From the NCBI GenBank assembly GCA_050260395.1, contig JBLNCC010000083.1, positions 17,592-81,591 of the forward strand: a DNA stretch of 64,000 nt, written 5' to 3'. Of the stretch, positions 2,894 to 54,159 are shown one piece after another. This DNA comes from Betaproteobacteria bacterium (GTDB lineage: Bacteria > Bacillota > SHA-98 > UBA4971). The notes beneath the pieces were generated by a model, which searched no databases, was not told the DNA's origin, and worked only from the letters and a program-made list of their open reading frames with translations. Position 1 is the stretch's first letter; each line of letters opens with the position of its first letter. Both the position numbers and the translations under genes were made by a program.

Positions 2894-2982
2894 GAAGGAT
2901 CCGGTGGTACCCACCTGGCACCCACCGGATCCTTCCTTTATGCGATCACTGGGGCTCCGGTCTGCGAGCACCGGAGCCCCAG
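2894..2982. other. Two adjacent perfect hairpins (14 bp and 12 bp stems)
   Basis: GAAGGATCCGGTGG (2894-2907) pairs with CCACCGGATCCTTC (2922-2935). CTGGGGCTCCGG (2949-2960) pairs with CCGGAGCCCCAG (2971-2982). Neither strand has a U-tract afterwards. Confidence 0.8.
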
Positions 2983-3686
2983 GGCGTCAGAAAACGAGAG
3001 CGATCTCATGGTCTCACGCTTTAGCGACACACAACACAGGCGCGGTAACAGCGAGTTTGCGGCCCCGACCGCGAGCGCATCCGGAAAGCGTCGGCGCAGT
3101 GGCGCACCGCCGTCCAAGGAAACGCCTGGTTTCCTGCCATGAATAGCTGACTCCAAGTGGCGGACTCCAAGGGGCGAGGCCGCGCGCTTGAAGAGGCGAG
3201 ACAAGGGCTCGGGTTACTCGGGTTACTAGACCCGAGGTCTGGGAATACTCAGGATCGCGGGGACTCCTGGAGACATATCTCGCGGCACGTGTTCCAGGCT
3301 GTCTCCTCGAGCGCCGGACAAGACGCCTCGCGCAGCGTCTCTCGGACCTTCCGGAGTCCGGGCCGCGTCTCCCGAGATACGCGACCAGGCCACTGAGGCG
3401 ATGGCGCCTGCAAGAAGGTGACTGGCGACATCTGCTGCGACGCGGTGCCCGGCGCTTCCTTCTACCCACAAGGAATGCCGCGAGATCCCACCGAGAGGAG
3501 CACACAGCGTGTGCCCGAGAATGATCGCAAAAGGGCTGACAACGAAACGCGGTCTGCTGGCACACGGGAAGTGACGAATGTTTTCTCTTCTCCCCCCAGC
3601 GTGACCGCCCAAAGAACACGAGAGTTGCGGCGTAAGGGGAAAGTGGCAACGGTTTGGCCACGGTGCGCAGCTCATTCTGAGGCCAC

Positions 3687-3731: not shown

Positions 3732-3806
3732 TGGAGCCGACGGGCGGATTCGAACCCCCAACCTGCTGATTACAAATCAGCTGCTCTACCGTTGAGCTAC
3801 GTCGGC
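3732..3806 (-). tRNA. tRNA-Thr (anticodon UGU)
   Basis: 75 nt. Acceptor GCCGACG/CGTCGGC, D arm GCTC-AACGGTA-GAGC, anticodon arm GCTGA-TTTGTAA-TCAGC (TGT), T loop TTCGAAT (one G-G mismatch in the T stem), CCA encoded. Confidence 0.88.
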
Positions 3807-16423: not shown

Positions 16424-16624
16424 TGAGTCGTGACCGCTGGGCTCGGAGCTGTCAAGTGGCGACGCCTCATCGATCGGGCCTTGACGAGACCTGGTCTTGA
16501 CAAAGCATGTTCCGCTTGAGGCGCCGTCCTCGGAGGCGACGCCGGCAACCTGGCAACCGCTGGCAGTCAATGGGAGAAGAGCCAACGCACCCTCTCGCAC
16601 ACTCTGCGAAGCGAGGTGACACGG

Positions 16625-24070: not shown

Positions 24071-26518
24071 CTATGCCTGACGCACGGCCTCCCTCTCTTT
24101 GCGCTGCACAGCGATGGTCCCGTCCTTGACCGAGACTTGCACCGTGTCGCCGTCCTTGATGCGGCCTTGGAGGAGCTCCTCGGAGAGCCTGTTCTCGATC
24201 ATACGCTCGATGGTCCTCCTGAGCGGACGCGCTCCGAACTCCTTGCTGAACCCCTCTTTCGCGAGGAGGTCCTTGGCTTCCTCCGTCACTTCCAAGTGGA
24301 TGTCGTGATCCTTGAGCCTCGCCTCCACGTCCTTCAGTTGGAGATCGACGATCCGCCTGATCTGCTCCGGGGTAAGCGCACGGAACACGATGATCTCGTC
24401 CACCCTATTGAGGAACTCCGGCCTGAAGGTCCGCCGCAGCTCCGACGTGATCTTCTCCTTCATCTGCTCGTAACTGTATTCCTCATCCTCACGGGCGGTG
24501 AACCCCAGCCGGGACTCCCGGTCGATGAGGTTCGCGCCGACGTTTGAGGTCATTATGATGACCGTGTTTCGGAAGTCCACAGTCCGCCCCTTGCCGTCGG
24601 TGAGCCTCCCTTCCTCAAGCACCTGCAGCAGGACGTTGAAGACGTCCGGGTGGGCCTTCTCGATCTCGTCGAACAAGACCACCGAGTACGGCCGCCTCCG
24701 CACTCTTTCTGTCAGCTGACCGGCCTCCTCGTAGCCGACGTAGCCGGGAGGCGCGCCTATGAGCCTCGACACCGTGTGCCTCTCCATGTACTCGGACATG
24801 TCGAAGGCTATCATCGCGTCCTCGTCGCCGAACAATGCCTCCGCGAGCGCCCTCGCAAGCTCGGTCTTGCCGACGCCCGTCGGACCGAGGAAGATGAACG
24901 ACCCGATCGGGCGCCTCGGGTCTTTGAGCCCTGCGCGCGCCCTCCGAATGGCCCTCGCAAGGGCCTCGACCGGCTCGTCCTGGCCTATGACTCGCTTGTG
25001 GAGGGTCTCCTCCAGTTTGAGTAGCCGCTGGGTCTCCTCCTCGGCAAGCTGCGCGACGGGGATACCCGTCCACGAGGACACGACCTGAGCGATATGTTCC
25101 GCCGTGACGGTGGCCTCGGCCATACCGCGCTTGCTCTGCCACTCGTTCTTCTTCGCGTCGATCTCTTCTTTGATCTTTTGCTCCTTGTCCCTGAGGGCCG
25201 CCGCCTTCTCGAACTCCTCGTTCTTGATGGCGGCCTCCTTCTCCGTCCTTATCCTGTTGAACTCGTCCTCGAGCTTTTTGATGTCGGGCGGTTCGATGGT
25301 CGTCGCGAGCCGGACCTTCGACGAGGCTTCGTCCACAAGATCGATGGCCTTGTCCGGCAGGAACCTGTCGGTGATGTACCGGTCCGCGAGACGCGCCGCG
25401 GCGCGGAGTGCCTCATCGGTGATCTTCACCCGGTGGTGGGCCTCATACCTGTCTCGTAGTCCCTCCAAGATGGCGATGGTCTCGTCCACAGTCGGCTCGC
25501 CGACCATGATCGGTTGGAACCGCCGCTCGAGGGCGGCGTCTTTCTCAACGTACTTGCGGTATTCGTCGATGGTCGTCGCGCCGATGCACTGGAGCTCACC
25601 CCTGGCGAGCGCGGGCTTGAGGATGTTCGCGGCGTCGATCGCTCCCTCGGCCGCGCCTGCGCCCACTATCGTGTGCATCTCATCTATGAAGAGCACCACG
25701 TCCCCAGAAGCTCTGATCTCGTCCACTATGCGCTTGAGGCGTTCCTCAAACTCCCCTCTGAACTTGGTGCCCGCCACTATCGAGCCCATGTCAAGGGCGA
25801 TGACGCGCTTCCCGCGGAGCACTTCCGGTACGTCGCCCCGGGCTACGTTTTGGGCGAGCCCCTCAACGATGGCGGTCTTGCCCACTCCCGGATCGCCTAT
25901 GAGCACGGGGTTGTTCTTGGTCCTCCGGCTCAGGACCTGGATCACCCGCTCGATCTCCTTGGCTCGTCCTATGACCGGATCAAGCTTGCCCTCCTCGGCC
26001 ATGGCGGTGAGGTCGCGGCCGAACTGGTCCAAGGTGGGCGTCTTGTGCGCCTTCTTGCCCTTCGTCGCTGCGCCCGGAGCTTCGCCGAGCAGACCCACGA
26101 CTTCTTTCCGCACCTTCTCAAGGTCCGCCCCGAGGCTCGTGAGCACCTGCGCGGCCACGCCCTCGCCCTCCCGGATGAGCCCGAGAAGGATGTGCTCCGT
26201 GCCGATGTAGCCCTGGCCGAGCTGCCTCGCCTCGGCCATGGCAAGCTCCAGCACCTTCTTCGCGCGAGGCGTGAGCGTCAACATGCGCACCCGGTCCGGG
26301 TCACCGCGGCCGACCATGCTCTCGACCGCCTGGCGCACGTTGTCCAGGTTTATGCCGAGGTTCTGCAGCGCGCGGGCGGCGATGCCCTGTCCCTCACCGA
26401 CGAGGCCAAGCAGGAGATGTTCGGTTCCGACGACGTCGTGGCCGAGCCTTCTCGCCTCTTCCTGCGAGAGCTGAAGGACTCGCTGCGCCCTCTCGGTAAG
26501 TCCTCCAAACATCATCAT
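24071..26518 (-). CDS. clpC: ATP-dependent Clp protease ATP-binding subunit ClpC
   Basis: 815 aa. Clp N-repeats, two AAA+ modules ([15 protein letters not shown] and [15 protein letters not shown]), and a UVR-like linker. Follows mcsB. Confidence 0.96.
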
Positions 26519-26520
26519 GT

Positions 26521-27588
26521 TTATCTACCTTCCTTCCTCGCCTTGATCTTCTCTCTTATCAGCGCGGCCCGCCGCACGTCTCTCTCGTGGGGCCCGAGCT
26601 CCTTCCCCATTATCCTCTGGAGGTATGCAGGCTGCGTGATGACCATGAGCTCGTTCAAGGTCTTCGCGTCGACGCCGGGAAGCAGCCCGGCCTCGACGCC
26701 GAGCCTCACGTCCGACAAAAGCCCCAGCGCCTCCTGGGACGTTATGAGCCGCGCGTGGGACAGGAGTCCGTAAGCCCGGTTCACCTTGTCCTCAAGCTGG
26801 TCTCTCCTCTCACGCACCAGTTTCTCTCGGACGCTCCGCTCCTGGCCGATGATCTGTTTGGTTATGCCCACGAGGTTGTCCACGAGCTCGTCCTCGGACC
26901 GGCCAAGGGTCACCTGGTTCGAAAGCTGGAACACATTACCCGTGGCTTCGGACCCCTCCCCGTACAGCCCCCTGACCGCGATGCCCACGTTGGAAACGGC
27001 GGCCAACACACGACCGACTTGGCCTGTGGCGGCAAGTGCAGGCAGGTGCACCATGACCGATGCGCGCAGCCCCGTGCCCACATTGGTGGGGCACGCCGTG
27101 ATGTAACCCAGCTTCTCGTCGAACGCGTAGTCCACCTTGATCTCGAACAAGTCGTCCACCCGGCTTGCAAGCTTAAGAGCCTCCTCGAGCTGCAACCCCG
27201 GCAGAAGGGCCTGGATGCGAAGGTGGTCTTCCTCGTTCACCATCACGCTCACGGTCTCGTCGGGACGAATCGCCACGAGCCGGTGTCTCGCGCCCTGCGC
27301 ATGCTGCGGGCTGATGAGATGCTTCTCGACGAGGATCTGTCGGTCAAGCGCGGGCGTCTCCGCCAGGCGGATCACAACGAGGTCTGAGAGCTCCTTCGTG
27401 GTCCTAATCGCCCGCTGAACCTGGTCCGCGACCTTCGCGAGGTCCGCTTCGGACGCCCGGTGTGGAAAGGGAATGCCGGCGAGGTTCCGGGCGAGCCTCA
27501 CTCGGGAGCTCAAGACCACGTCGGCGGACGGCGCGTCGGCCTGCATCCAAGCGCTGGTCGTCTTGTCTATTATGTCCCCAAGAGACAC
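26521..27588 (-). CDS. mcsB: Protein arginine kinase McsB
   Basis: Phosphagen-kinase-like core: [39 protein letters not shown] 27588 has GAGGAGGG 7 nt upstream. Confidence 0.93.
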
Positions 27589-27603: not shown

Positions 27604-28128
27604 TCACGACTCGCCCGCGAGATCCTTCTCAAGAGCGCGGATCCTGTCCCGGACTTTCGCGGCTTCCTCGTATTGCTCCTTCGCAACCAATCTGGCGAGC
27701 TCCGCGCGTAGCTCTTCGATCTCCCGCCTCTTGCCCGCCGTCGCGCCCGTCCTTCCCGGAACCTTCCCTGTATGGCGCACGCTGCCGTGGACGCGCCTGA
27801 GAAGCGGCTCTAGCCTCCCGCGGAATTCGTCGTAGCAATCGGGGCATCCCAGGAACCCGGTGTTCCGGAACTCGGAGAAGTCCAGGCCGCAGCTTCGGCA
27901 GCGGCTTGTGACGCCGCCTGGTATGGTGACCGGCCCCGTGAAGCCGGGGTCATATTGGAGCAGCCCCGCGAGAAGGCTCGGAAACGAGAACTTGGGCTCC
28001 GAGAAGAAGTCGAGCTCGCCCTTCTCACGCGCGCACTGCTCACAAAGGTGCGACTCCGTCTTCACACCGTTGATTATCTTGGTCAGATGAACGTTCGCAG
28101 GTCTCTTTCCACACTCGTCGCATACCAT
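27604..28128 (-). CDS. mcsA: McsA (UvrB/C-motif, zinc-finger activator of McsB)
   Basis: Cys pairs CDECGKRPA...CEQC and CRSCG...CPDCY. C-terminal UVR motif: YEEAAKVRDRIRALE. Confidence 0.9.
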   Translation of the reverse strand: MVCDECGKRPANVHLTKIINGVKTESHLCEQCAREKGELDFFSEPKFSFPSLLAGLLQYDPGFTGPVTIPGGVTSRCRSCGLDFSEFRNTGFLGCPDCYDEFRGRLEPLLRRVHGSVRHTGKVPGRTGATAGKRREIEELRAELARLVAKEQYEEAAKVRDRIRALEKDLAGES

Positions 28129-28197
28129 CGCTCACACCCCCACATTCCATATGATGCCTGGACCGGGACAAGCCGCGCTACGAGACCGCCTCGCGCG

Positions 28198-28368
28198 CCC
28201 CTCCCCGTCCCTCGCGCCGTTCCGATAGGACGCCCGCGGCCCTAAGTGAGGGTACGTTAGTCCCTACCCCATTTCCAGTAGGTGCCGGGTTGCCGGTGTT
28301 GCATTCGGGGACGGCGCCCCAAGCGGGGCGCGCTTCGCCAAAATCCGGCCCGTCGGGCAAGTGGACTG
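28198..28368. repeat. Copy 1 of a conserved intergenic element (core GTGCCGGGTTGCCGGTGTTGCATTCGGGGACGGCGCCCCAAGCGGGGCG)
   Basis: The 28282-28330 core matches 53760-53808 at 44 of 49 positions in the same orientation. Flanking blocks (TAAGTGAGGGTACGTTAGTCC, AATCCGG.CCGT..GGC.AGTG) are also shared. Confidence 0.8.
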
Positions 28369-28374
28369 GTTTTG

Positions 28375-28836
28375 TTACTCGCGCAGCAACGACATCACCA
28401 TGGCCCTCAGAAGGCTCGCCCGCACCATTCCGCGGTAGCTCGGGTGGAGCCTCTCCGTCTCACGCTCGAGGACGGCCTTCACAAACGCGCGGTCGCCCTC
28501 ATCGAGCAGCCCCTCGTCCTCAAGCCGCAGCAGCAGCGCGTCGGCCCGCCTTTCAGTGATCTCGTCCCCGATCTCTGCTTCGATGAGCGACGCCAGGTCC
28601 TGGCTCGGCCGAAACGACAGCCGGACTATGCGGATGTAGCCGCCACCCCCTCTGCGGGTCTCCACGACATAGCCCCTGTCGGGGGTAAACCTCGTAGTCA
28701 GCACGTAATTGATCTGTGAAGGCACGCACCTGAACATCTCGGCAAGCTCGCGCCTTTGCAACTCTATCATGCCCTGCTCGGCGTTTTCGAGAAGCCGCTT
28801 CAGGTAACTCTCGATGTAATCTGCGAGGTTGCCCAC
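28375..28836 (-). CDS. ctsR: Class III stress-gene repressor CtsR
   Basis: ORF 28375..29289 trimmed to GTG 28836 (GGAAGGGA 5 nt upstream), giving 153 aa. LADYIESYLKRLL...RRELAEMFRCVPSQINYVLTTRFT...GYVVETRRGGGGYIRI is the CtsR wHTH plus glycine loop. Confidence 0.9.
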   Translation of the reverse strand: MGNLADYIESYLKRLLENAEQGMIELQRRELAEMFRCVPSQINYVLTTRFTPDRGYVVETRRGGGGYIRIVRLSFRPSQDLASLIEAEIGDEITERRADALLLRLEDEGLLDEGDRAFVKAVLERETERLHPSYRGMVRASLLRAMVMSLLRE

Positions 28837-28900
28837 GGATTTCCCTTCCCGATGTCCCGCGATGTCGCCGGATCTACGATTTGGTATTGCCAGGAACCAC

Positions 28901-28933
28901 TTTGACCTTTCCTGACCTTTCGACCATATTATA
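28901..28933 (-). promoter_or_regulatory. ctsR promoter -10 (TGcTATAAT) overlapped by a CtsR operator
   Basis: Minus strand reads TGCTATAATAT-GGTCGAA-A-GGTCAGG-AAA-GGTCAAA. This gives three GGTC heptads, the last two spaced like the GGTCAAA-NAN-GGTCAAA consensus. It lies ~65 nt upstream of the ctsR start. Confidence 0.75.
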
Positions 28934-29174
28934 GCACCAAGCCTCCCTGAAGATGCACCCTGGAATAACCGTCGCCACGGGCCACATGCGGCTGCGATCG
29001 CCGGACTGGCGGGAAGAGGTTGCTCTTTCACTATATATCGCGCCAGCGTTCGCTCGCGCGCGTCAGCGTGCGCGCAAGCAATATGGAGGCGCGGGTCGCC
29101 GCGAGGCAACCCGCGCCTTGCTCGACTCCGTTCGGACGGCAAGGGATCACGAAACGTTCTCCCGCCAAGACATA

Positions 29175-53653: not shown

Positions 53654-53844
53654 CCGACCCCGTTCCCTCTGCCCTGCTCCATGTGAGGTGCTTTAGTCTT
53701 TGAGCCATTGCCAAGTGGATCGCCATAAGTAACCGCCGGTTCCAGAGAGCACACGCGCGGTGCAGGGTTGCCGGTGTTGCACTCGGGGACGGCGCTCCAG
53801 GCGGGGCACCGTCGGTGAATCCGGGCCGTGAGGCCAGTGAGCGG
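53654..53844. repeat. Copy 2 of the conserved intergenic element
   Basis: Core 53760-53808 matches 28282-28330 at 44 of 49 positions. Relative to copy 1, this copy carries a ~45 nt insertion between the ATGTGAGGTGCTTTAGTC block and the core. Confidence 0.8.
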
Positions 53845-54159
53845 ATTCTGACCCTCCCTCTCACAATTACTGGCAACCCCCCCGAAAAGTCGGGGCCTTG
53901 CCGCACTCCCACCTAGTGGTGGAGCGGCAAAACGTGCCCTCAGGAAGGAAATGCACCGTGTGTACAGAATATTACTGCAATAGTAGAGCGCCCAGTCTCA
54001 TTGCGCATGTGGCACAAAACCGAAAAGGAGGTGGCAGGCGAAAAGGCAGGAGAGGGCGATGTCCCGGCAGCGTGAGCCACGGGTCCATCGACTAGGCACG
54101 GTGTCTTGAGTTCCGGGAATCCCTAGAGAGCGTATACGAGGAATGAAGGAGGTAGAGCA

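Follow-up and report, generated by a model that had tools for sequence, protein, structure and literature searches.

What lies between ctsR and mcsA in the class III heat-shock operon ctsR-mcsA-mcsB-clpC carried by this 64,000-nt stretch of contig JBLNCC010000083.1 (hereafter the window)? The operon is on the window minus strand, with gene identities assigned by Pfam, and a first-pass annotation made from the sequence alone had described the ctsR-mcsA gap as filled by a recurring element, proposing that the plus strand yields a structured RNA antisense to the operon, with a mobile repeat of the repetitive extragenic palindrome (REP) or MITE (miniature inverted-repeat transposable element) kind as the alternative. 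Our analysis bears out the alternative: the repeat has terminal inverted repeats (TIRs), occurs in many copies across ~9 related genomes, and is present or absent at given sites among close relatives. The insert is very probably a truncated copy of a MITE-like, non-autonomous mobile repeat that is near-neutral and passively co-transcribed with the operon, in substance the mobile-element fragment that the annotation had named as incompatible with its RNA. As far as could be found the repeat family is previously undescribed, and it is restricted to one clade of high-GC, uncultured Bacillota; a full-text literature search with four signature strings of the family returned no paper.

The core of the repeat occurs twice in the window as a direct repeat, 28281-28329 against 53759-53807, with 45 of 49 positions identical (92%). 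The recurrence and shared orientation seen in the first pass hold, and its figures shift slightly from 28282-28330 and 53760-53808 at 44 of 49. In length and quality this pair far exceeds every other repeat of the window, all of which are at most 35 nt long at 66–82% identity. The additional shared block TAAGTGAGGGTACGTTAGTCC against ATGTGAGGTGCTTTAGTC is present and corresponds to the left terminal arm of the element, and the AATCCGG block and the hairpins CGCCCC-AAGC-GGGGCG and GCCC-GTC-GGGC were found as first described. Profile searches with nhmmer identified four copies or fragments in the window (Table 1). Copy 1, in the ctsR-mcsA spacer, is ~90% identical to the type-A consensus described below, ends exactly at the ctsR stop codon, and lacks ~67 nt, comprising the central stem's 3′ strand and the right arm. 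The spacer measures 246 nt as claimed (28129-28374), and the element fills only the 133 nt beside the ctsR stop codon (28242-28374), leaving 113 nt (28129-28241) as native spacer. Copy 2, located in the divergent intergenic region between an M16 peptidase gene and an SBP_bac_5 gene, is longer than the extent of 53654-53844 given at first, reaching from 53679 to 53916 by profile search and consensus alignment. It is ~81% identical to the consensus and combines a remnant of the type-A left arm with a type-B left arm, the core and the right arm of type A.

Inspection of 128 full-context copies in register revealed that the full element is a nested palindrome, of which copy 1 represents the left two-thirds. 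Consensus lengths are 199 nt for type A, 214 nt for type B and 210 nt for type C, with a short form of 126 nt in which a 7-nt loop takes the place of the interior. The outer ends of type A form a perfect 14-nt inverted repeat, CTAAGTGAGGGTGC...GCACCCTCACTTAG. All TIRs start CTAAGT(G/A), and types B, C and D share CTAAGT...ACTTAG ends and the same central stem while their arms differ. The central stem of ~16 bp, GGTTGCCGGTGTTGCA...TGCAATCACCGGCAACC (family form GGTTGCCGGTGTTGCA/TGCAA(T)CACCGGCAACC), is 98% paired in 88 full copies, and in the long form it encloses two inner hairpins, H1 and H2. Arm types are recombined among copies into chimeric combinations, and 7 of 82 classifiable copies have their core in flipped orientation with respect to the arms; the asymmetric H1–H2 interior is inverted, for example, at L012:6720-6833, L113:2338-2468, L046:1714-1827 and L072:1271-1382. 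The flipped interiors suggest occasional inversion by recombination between the two central-stem strands. Cores without arms were absent from the related genomes, and open reading frames (ORFs) spanning the element had no Pfam match.

Comparison with related operons places the insertion of copy 1 in time. McsA homologs form a graded series of uncultured Bacillota in which the ctsR-mcsA spacer measures 168 nt at 93% McsA identity (loci L001 and L002), 157 nt at 89% (L003), 41 nt at 81% (L004) and 244 nt of unrelated sequence at 78% (L007), the last (L007:3153-3396) matching none of the repeat profiles. In the aligned spacers of L001–L004 nothing corresponds to the block 28242-28374, and only the window is filled. 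The alignment shows that one copy entered an already non-trivial ctsR-mcsA spacer after the split from the sampled relatives, and the long spacer is not due to the insert alone because insert-free relatives have spacers of 41, 157 and 168 nt. The 3′ end of ctsR is kept in relatives without the repeat. Both nhmmer and local alignment extend ~25 nt into ctsR, raising the possibility that its last codons derive from the repeat, and we rejected this origin since repeat-free relatives have the same codons. At a second polymorphic site, a type-A copy stands directly upstream of a gene in L001 and is missing from the window and L003, the junction reading ...CACTTAG/AACAGAAGG in L001 and GACTAC/AACAGAAGG in the window.

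The family is abundant and confined to one clade. A scan of one genome per species with the core 19-mer GGTTGCCGGTGTTGCAYTC returned at least 114 stretches containing it, and among the matches listed ~72 of 80 fall in nine related Bacillota metagenome-assembled genomes (MAGs): MAG-64, AS02xzSISU_21, Yes71-24, MAG107, UBA6811, MAG111, MAG303, binned_ad_5.35 and AS08sgBPME_304. MAG-64 and AS02xzSISU_21 hold the most loci among these matches (19 and 17, respectively). Searching the relatives' loci with the two main window copies by blastn yielded more intergenic copies in both orientations. Type-A copies in the MAGs are 90–98% identical to their consensus, which indicates recent amplification. 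Seven 19-mer matches in unrelated taxa share nothing of the element beyond the 19-mer itself, the type-A consensus matched none of 72,556 plasmids and 50,697 phage records, and viral contigs gave one short, chance-level 19-mer match only. One short contig labeled Ignavibacteriales has a core and hairpins like the others; its source study also produced MAG107 and MAG111, and it is probably mis-binned. Overall, some contigs with these Bacillota genes or repeats bear Bacteroidota or Ignavibacteriales labels (L002-type records, L054), which probably reflect MAG mis-binning or mislabeling.

Bacterial MITEs are recognized as elements under 500 bp without transposase coding, with TIRs of ~4–30 bp, many copies, insertion polymorphism and stem-loops (PMC10969869). 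The present family has consensus lengths of 126–214 nt and no coding match, a perfect 14-nt inverted repeat in type A and CTAAGT...ACTTAG ends in types B, C and D, and a dispersed distribution of at least 114 stretches, including the four copies or fragments of the window, as well as the capacity for stable stem-loops. Mobility is evident from a ctsR-mcsA site empty in four relatives and a second site filled in L001 and empty in the window and L003. Among 73 non-redundant full copies, the flanks are CTA...TAG in 39 and TA...TA in 43; the TA flanks lie within the palindrome and no direct repeats occur outside them. TA within CTAG is the classical target of IS630, and the empty second site of the window reads CTAC, close to CTAG. 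On sequence grounds, the C-TA-[element]-TA-G arrangement suggests that copies may insert at TA within CTAG in an IS630/Tc1-mariner-like way.

Several observations weigh against this assignment. An autonomous partner was not found: no transposase gene bounded by the same TIRs occurs in the ~1 Mb of DNA sampled from these genomes, where inverted 18-mers starting TAAG and spaced 0.6–4 kb apart delimit only separate copies flanking ordinary genes, arms that do not lead into a core all carry an unrelated nested element of ~108 nt rather than a parent element, and apparent multi-copy ORFs are orthologs only. Several accepted families of MITEs, such as Correia, likewise have no known parent. The CTA/TAG flanks are palindromic and possibly part of the inverted repeat, a view that CCA...TGG in two copies fits better. 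Neither a flank-joining blast search nor the orthologous sites of copy 2 yielded a clean filled/empty pair with both junctions; one candidate from the former, L091 against L019, proved to be a deletion remnant, and the copy 2 site in L124 and L125 is too diverged to compare. The element is GC-rich, as is its host genome (62% G+C), whereas bacterial MITEs are typically, though not necessarily, AT-rich (PMC10969869). All copies outside the window were retrieved through the central 19-mer, such that the universality of the core is partly built in. Finally, the compensatory changes in H2 are not predicted by simple TIR-dependent transposition, which leaves room for hairpin-dependent mobilization or function.

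The last of these points concerns the pairing of the hairpins, which the first-pass annotation had read as compensatory and which is genuine. In H2, both sides change at 7 of 10 pairs and two pairs switch from C-G to U-A between subfamilies (50 versus 30–34 sequences), giving 89 double-change cells against 43 in shuffles, a count exceeded in 0 of 500 shuffles, and a further 33 compensated cells occur within subfamily 2. This H2 covariation largely reflects two lineages, and its Watson-Crick compensation applies to either strand alike, which is what a palindromic mobile element should show. We obtained these counts from stems defined by hand for each subfamily and from structure-pair counting; RNAalifold applied to the mixed 88-copy alignment missed the inner hairpins because the subfamilies differ by indels. 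Judged from these alignments, the hairpins are a maintained feature of the family.

Maintained hairpins could also indicate spread in the manner of REPINs, in which single-stranded hairpins are mobilized by a domesticated HUH/tyrosine transposase (RAYT, IS200/IS605-like) and the repeat is not an internal deletion derivative of an insertion sequence (IS). In favor of this explanation, the hairpins are the most conserved feature, with pairing retained through the C-G to T-A changes of H2, the subfamily 2 compensations and a fully compensated variant of the central stem at 2951-2980 in copy 4. GTAG motifs in the arms (CTAAGTAGATCGCC, CCAGTAGTTGCC), the lack of a convincing target-site duplication outside the palindromic termini, and the failure to find a DDE parent element in the sampled DNA point the same way. 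REPs are 20–40 nt and REPINs ~70–110 nt, however, and the present repeat is ~200 nt long, its extreme ends being inverted repeats and its arms differing by subtype. Its flanks are consistently TA within CTAG, resembling an IS630/Tc1 signature, and among the loci sampled, a small set in which no Y1 transposase profile search was made, no RAYT-like gene, either multi-copy or flanked, came to light. We regard REPIN-like spread as quite improbable.

The proposed plus-strand RNA antisense to the operon, or a cis-acting RNA reused at several loci, draws on the same real and conserved hairpins, on two H2 pairs of copy 1 that can form G-U pairs on the plus strand only, and on reports that some bacterial MITEs yield small RNAs or undergo RNase III processing (PMC10969869, PMC2649163). 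Our analysis did not support it. Rfam 15 identified only four tRNAs across the whole window at the gathering threshold and, at E≤10, only chance-level matches (E 2.9–9.6) in both repeat regions; the Rfam scan that the annotation had called for thus names no RNA family for the element. Single-sequence folds of both strands of both copies were no better than dinucleotide shuffles (z −0.3 to −1.4). Strand-specific G-U pairing, a hint of RNA in the first-pass annotation, does not extend to the family, with 69 G-T wobbles (24+45) against 61 A-C mismatches (35+26) on the window plus strand across 87 members. Orientation relative to flanking co-directional genes was likewise balanced (27 sense and 29 antisense by a crude GC3-based gene caller). 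Neither strand has a promoter- or terminator-like site within the element, one-third of the element, with one strand of its main stem, is missing from copy 1, and the closest relatives have the same operon without the insert. At the copy 2 locus, the counterpart in L122, whose M16 peptidase is 93% identical to that of the window, aligns at 51% identity against 78–79% for the flanking intergenic DNA and is not recognized by the family profiles. The alignment suggests an old insertion decaying without constraint, with a different sequence at the same site as the alternative. A structured RNA at this locus is, on this evidence, highly improbable.

Within the operon, the only CtsR-box match in the 64-kb window is the one upstream of ctsR, where a TATAAT −10 box preceded by TGC is directly followed by three heptads (GGTCGAA-A-GGTCAGG-AAA-GGTCAAA). 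A CtsR-box scan found none in the ctsR-mcsA spacer, a promoter scan found no promoter-like site in the spacer or element on either strand, and no terminator-like site (a GC-rich stem with a U-run) occurs on either strand from 27900 to 29100. Beyond the spacer there is a lone plus-strand promoter-like match, which is the ctsR operator and −10 region read in reverse complement. Since these scans detected neither a second promoter nor a CtsR box or terminator in the spacer, we infer passive co-transcription of copy 1.

The route to this arrangement would be as follows. A transposase encoded elsewhere would recognize the TIRs and move copies in trans, inserting them at TA within CTAG in the IS630/Tc1-mariner manner. 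A later deletion would have removed the right third of copy 1; presumably it halted at the ctsR stop codon, since any larger deletion would impair that gene. Copy 1 is then probably transcribed passively within the ctsR-mcsA-mcsB-clpC mRNA, where H1 and H2 could still form; its long stem cannot form because the copy is truncated. Copy 1 most likely has little or no regulatory effect, and H1 and H2 may have a modest effect on mRNA processing.

A stronger version of that effect would have the mobile repeat domesticated in the operon mRNA, with H1 and H2 as an RNase processing or stabilizing site or a weak attenuator that uncouples CtsR from McsA, McsB and ClpC levels, a role played in other bacteria by Correia and ERIC elements. 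Copy 1 does lie within a transcription unit right after a stop codon, a position where changes in mRNA stability have been reported for ERIC and Correia elements (PMC10969869, PMC2649163). Its H1 is intact with 7 G-C-rich base pairs, and the truncating deletion spared both hairpins. Yet no terminator-like site is present, the long double-stranded stem needed by RNase III cannot form with its 3′ strand deleted, close relatives run the same operon insert-free, and conservation of copy 1 is not evidenced, as one genome only carries it. We consider domestication unlikely.

Among known systems, the family behaves most like the Correia elements of Neisseria (CREE/NEMIS), a likeness of function that carries no claim of homology. 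Correia elements are also non-coding repeats of 100–200 nt with TIRs and TA flanks, present in tens to hundreds of mostly intergenic copies that often lie in transcription units, with long and short forms set by an internal segment, reported inversion and no known parent transposase; their transcripts fold into long hairpins that RNase III can process (PMC2649163, PMC10969869). The present element differs in its Bacillota host, its GC-richness, its nested second palindrome, two inner hairpins and several arm types on one core, and neither an IHF site nor a promoter was found in it. The Correia terminus, TATAGTGGATT..., loosely resembles C-TA-AGTGGATCGCC in copy 2. MITEs derived from IS630/Tc1-mariner elements, such as the pneumococcal RUP, share short TIRs and non-autonomy, and the C-TA-...-TA-G flanks seen here in 39 of 73 copies resemble a TA duplication within CTAG, but no IS630-family transposase with matching ends was found in the sampled DNA, and the TA may belong to the inverted repeat. 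RUP, BOX and SPRITE nest with other repeats (PMC3049150, PMC10969869), nesting is also seen here, and both nesting and inversion have been reported for bacterial MITEs (PMC10969869). REP/REPIN-RAYT systems are likewise lineage-specific, GC-rich extragenic palindromes with compensated hairpins and high copy number, in contrast to which the present repeat, at ~200 nt, has TIRs and variable arms (REPINs measure ~100 nt). ERIC/IRU elements are ~130-nt imperfect palindromes in transcribed intergenic regions of operons, with long and short variants from internal indels and reported effects on mRNA stability (PMC10969869, PMC2229807). They differ in sequence and host, and ERIC copies are largely at conserved orthologous positions whereas insertion polymorphism here separates genomes with McsA 81–93% identical.

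We give a small chance to the family being more than junk, either as a hairpin recognized by a single-strand-specific enzyme, which would be REPIN-like and new to Bacillota, or as a sequence used by the host. This idea arises because pairing is kept across subfamilies and because a single core, which can be flipped, is joined to several arm types unrelated to each other. If the host does use it, the hairpins would serve as RNA-processing or insulation sites, and the ctsR-operon copy would tune the ratio of the CtsR repressor to its antagonists McsA, McsB and ClpC. Under the preferred reading of a near-neutral mobile repeat, a false lead is removed, as the long ctsR-mcsA spacer hides no new regulatory RNA, and hairpin blocks like these in genomes of the clade should be masked as repeats before searches for non-coding RNA. 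What is gained is an abundant undescribed MITE-like family with an unusually modular nested-palindrome build and a second element inserting into its arms, together with a natural insertion in a class III heat-shock operon whose insert-free relatives could reveal whether such insertions disturb the CtsR to McsA/McsB/ClpC balance. None of this would surprise a specialist.

Table 1. Features of the heat-shock operon and of the repeat family in the window, followed by the parts of the type-A consensus in 5′ to 3′ order
Feature	Position	Strand	Evidence or sequence
Copy 4, short degenerate fragment	~2951-3024	plus	nhmmer type-B profile E=7e-4; weak evidence
Copy 3, degenerate left arm and core fragment, intergenic	16483-16596	minus	blastn; nhmmer E=3e-15
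clpC	24071-26518	minus	Pfam
mcsB	26521-27588	minus	Pfam
mcsA (174 aa)	27604-28128	minus	Pfam UVR motif; homologs named protein arginine kinase activator
Native part of ctsR-mcsA spacer, including mcsA ribosome-binding site	28129-28241	minus	mcsA-proximal ~60 nt aligns with repeat-free relatives
Copy 1, truncated type A	28242-28374	plus	nhmmer type-A profile E=1e-40; consensus positions 1-132 of 199
Copy 1, left terminal arm	28242-28287	plus	starts with TIR CTAAGTGAGGGTAC; matches type-A left arm CTAAGTGAGGGTGCGTTAGTCC...CCAGTAGTTGCCG
Copy 1, central stem 5′ strand	28288-28303	plus	GGTTGCCGGTGTTGCA; partner strand deleted in copy 1
Copy 1, inner hairpin H1	28314-28331	none	GCGCCCC-AAGC-GGGGCGC; sequence read; conserved in subfamily 1
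Copy 1, inner hairpin H2	28340-28373	none	AAAATCCGGCC...GGACTGGTTTT; weakened in copy 1
ctsR (153 aa)	28375-28836	minus	Pfam CtsR and CtsR_C domains; stop codon adjoins truncated repeat
ctsR operon promoter, TATAAT −10 box then three CtsR heptads	28901-28933	minus	sequence read
Copy 2, complete but degenerate chimera	53679-53916	plus	nhmmer E=2e-29 (type A), 5e-37 (type B)
Type A, left arm	consensus		CTAAGTGAGGGTGC-GTTAGTCCTCGCCCCTCTTCCAGTAGTTGCCG
Type A, central stem 5′ strand, then spacer	consensus		GGTTGCCGGTGTTGCAC, TCGGGGAC
Type A, hairpin H1, then spacer	consensus		GGCGCCCCAAGCGGGGCGC, GCTTCGCC
Type A, hairpin H2, then spacer	consensus		AAAATCCGGCC...GGCCGGATTTT, GACACCCCTC
Type A, central stem 3′ strand	consensus		GTGCAATCACCGGCAACC
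Type A, right arm	consensus		CCTCCCAAAAGTCGGGAGCATTTCT-GCACCCCCACTTAG

The unrelated ~108-nt element nested in the arms of the main repeat has inverted repeats GAGACYGTTGA...TCAACRGTCTC and sits 13–16 nt inside the arms at seven loci (L003:7904-8011, L108:2002-2109, L012:6862-6969, L025:4542-4649, L058:2143-2250, L077:6975-7083 and L097:2876-2983). Clear 6-bp target-site duplications accompany it (CTGCAC, GTGCAG, GTGCGT, GTTCAG and CACCAT), and it appears to target the main repeat specifically, as a MITE nested within a MITE. An alternative end, GAGACTGTTGAACTTCCCCAG, which might have closed a TnpB-like or transposase gene at its 3′ end, turned out to be the inverted repeat of this nested element. 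A third palindromic element, CTAAGCTCATTTTCCGCA...TGCGGAAAATGGGCTAAG (L058:1984-2127), has inserted precisely at the left end of a type-A copy and is absent from the orthologous L079 site, with a junction that fits a 5-bp CTAAG or a TA duplication. In L003, an interval of ~1.8 kb between ogt and ctsR without a called gene (L003:7575-9381; ~340 nt in the window) holds a main-repeat copy carrying the nested 108-nt element.

Near copy 2, the SBP_bac_5 gene is intact in the window (560 aa), whereas in L122 and L123, from the closest relative at the M16 peptidase locus, gene calling gave short, overlapping pieces of 209 and 201 aa for the SBP_bac_5 and permease genes (L122:942-2125, L123:942-2125), which may be pseudogenes or assembly frameshifts. 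Copy 4 combines a variant central hairpin, GGGGCTCCGGT...CACCGGAGCCCC, with a type-B-like right arm ending CTTTAG. Just upstream of it, at 2870-2945, is a local palindrome, GAAGGATCCGGTGG...CCACCGGATCCTTC, that we matched to no family. Copy 4 lies between tRNA genes, of which the window has four on the minus strand, three clustered at 271-535 and one at 3735-3806.

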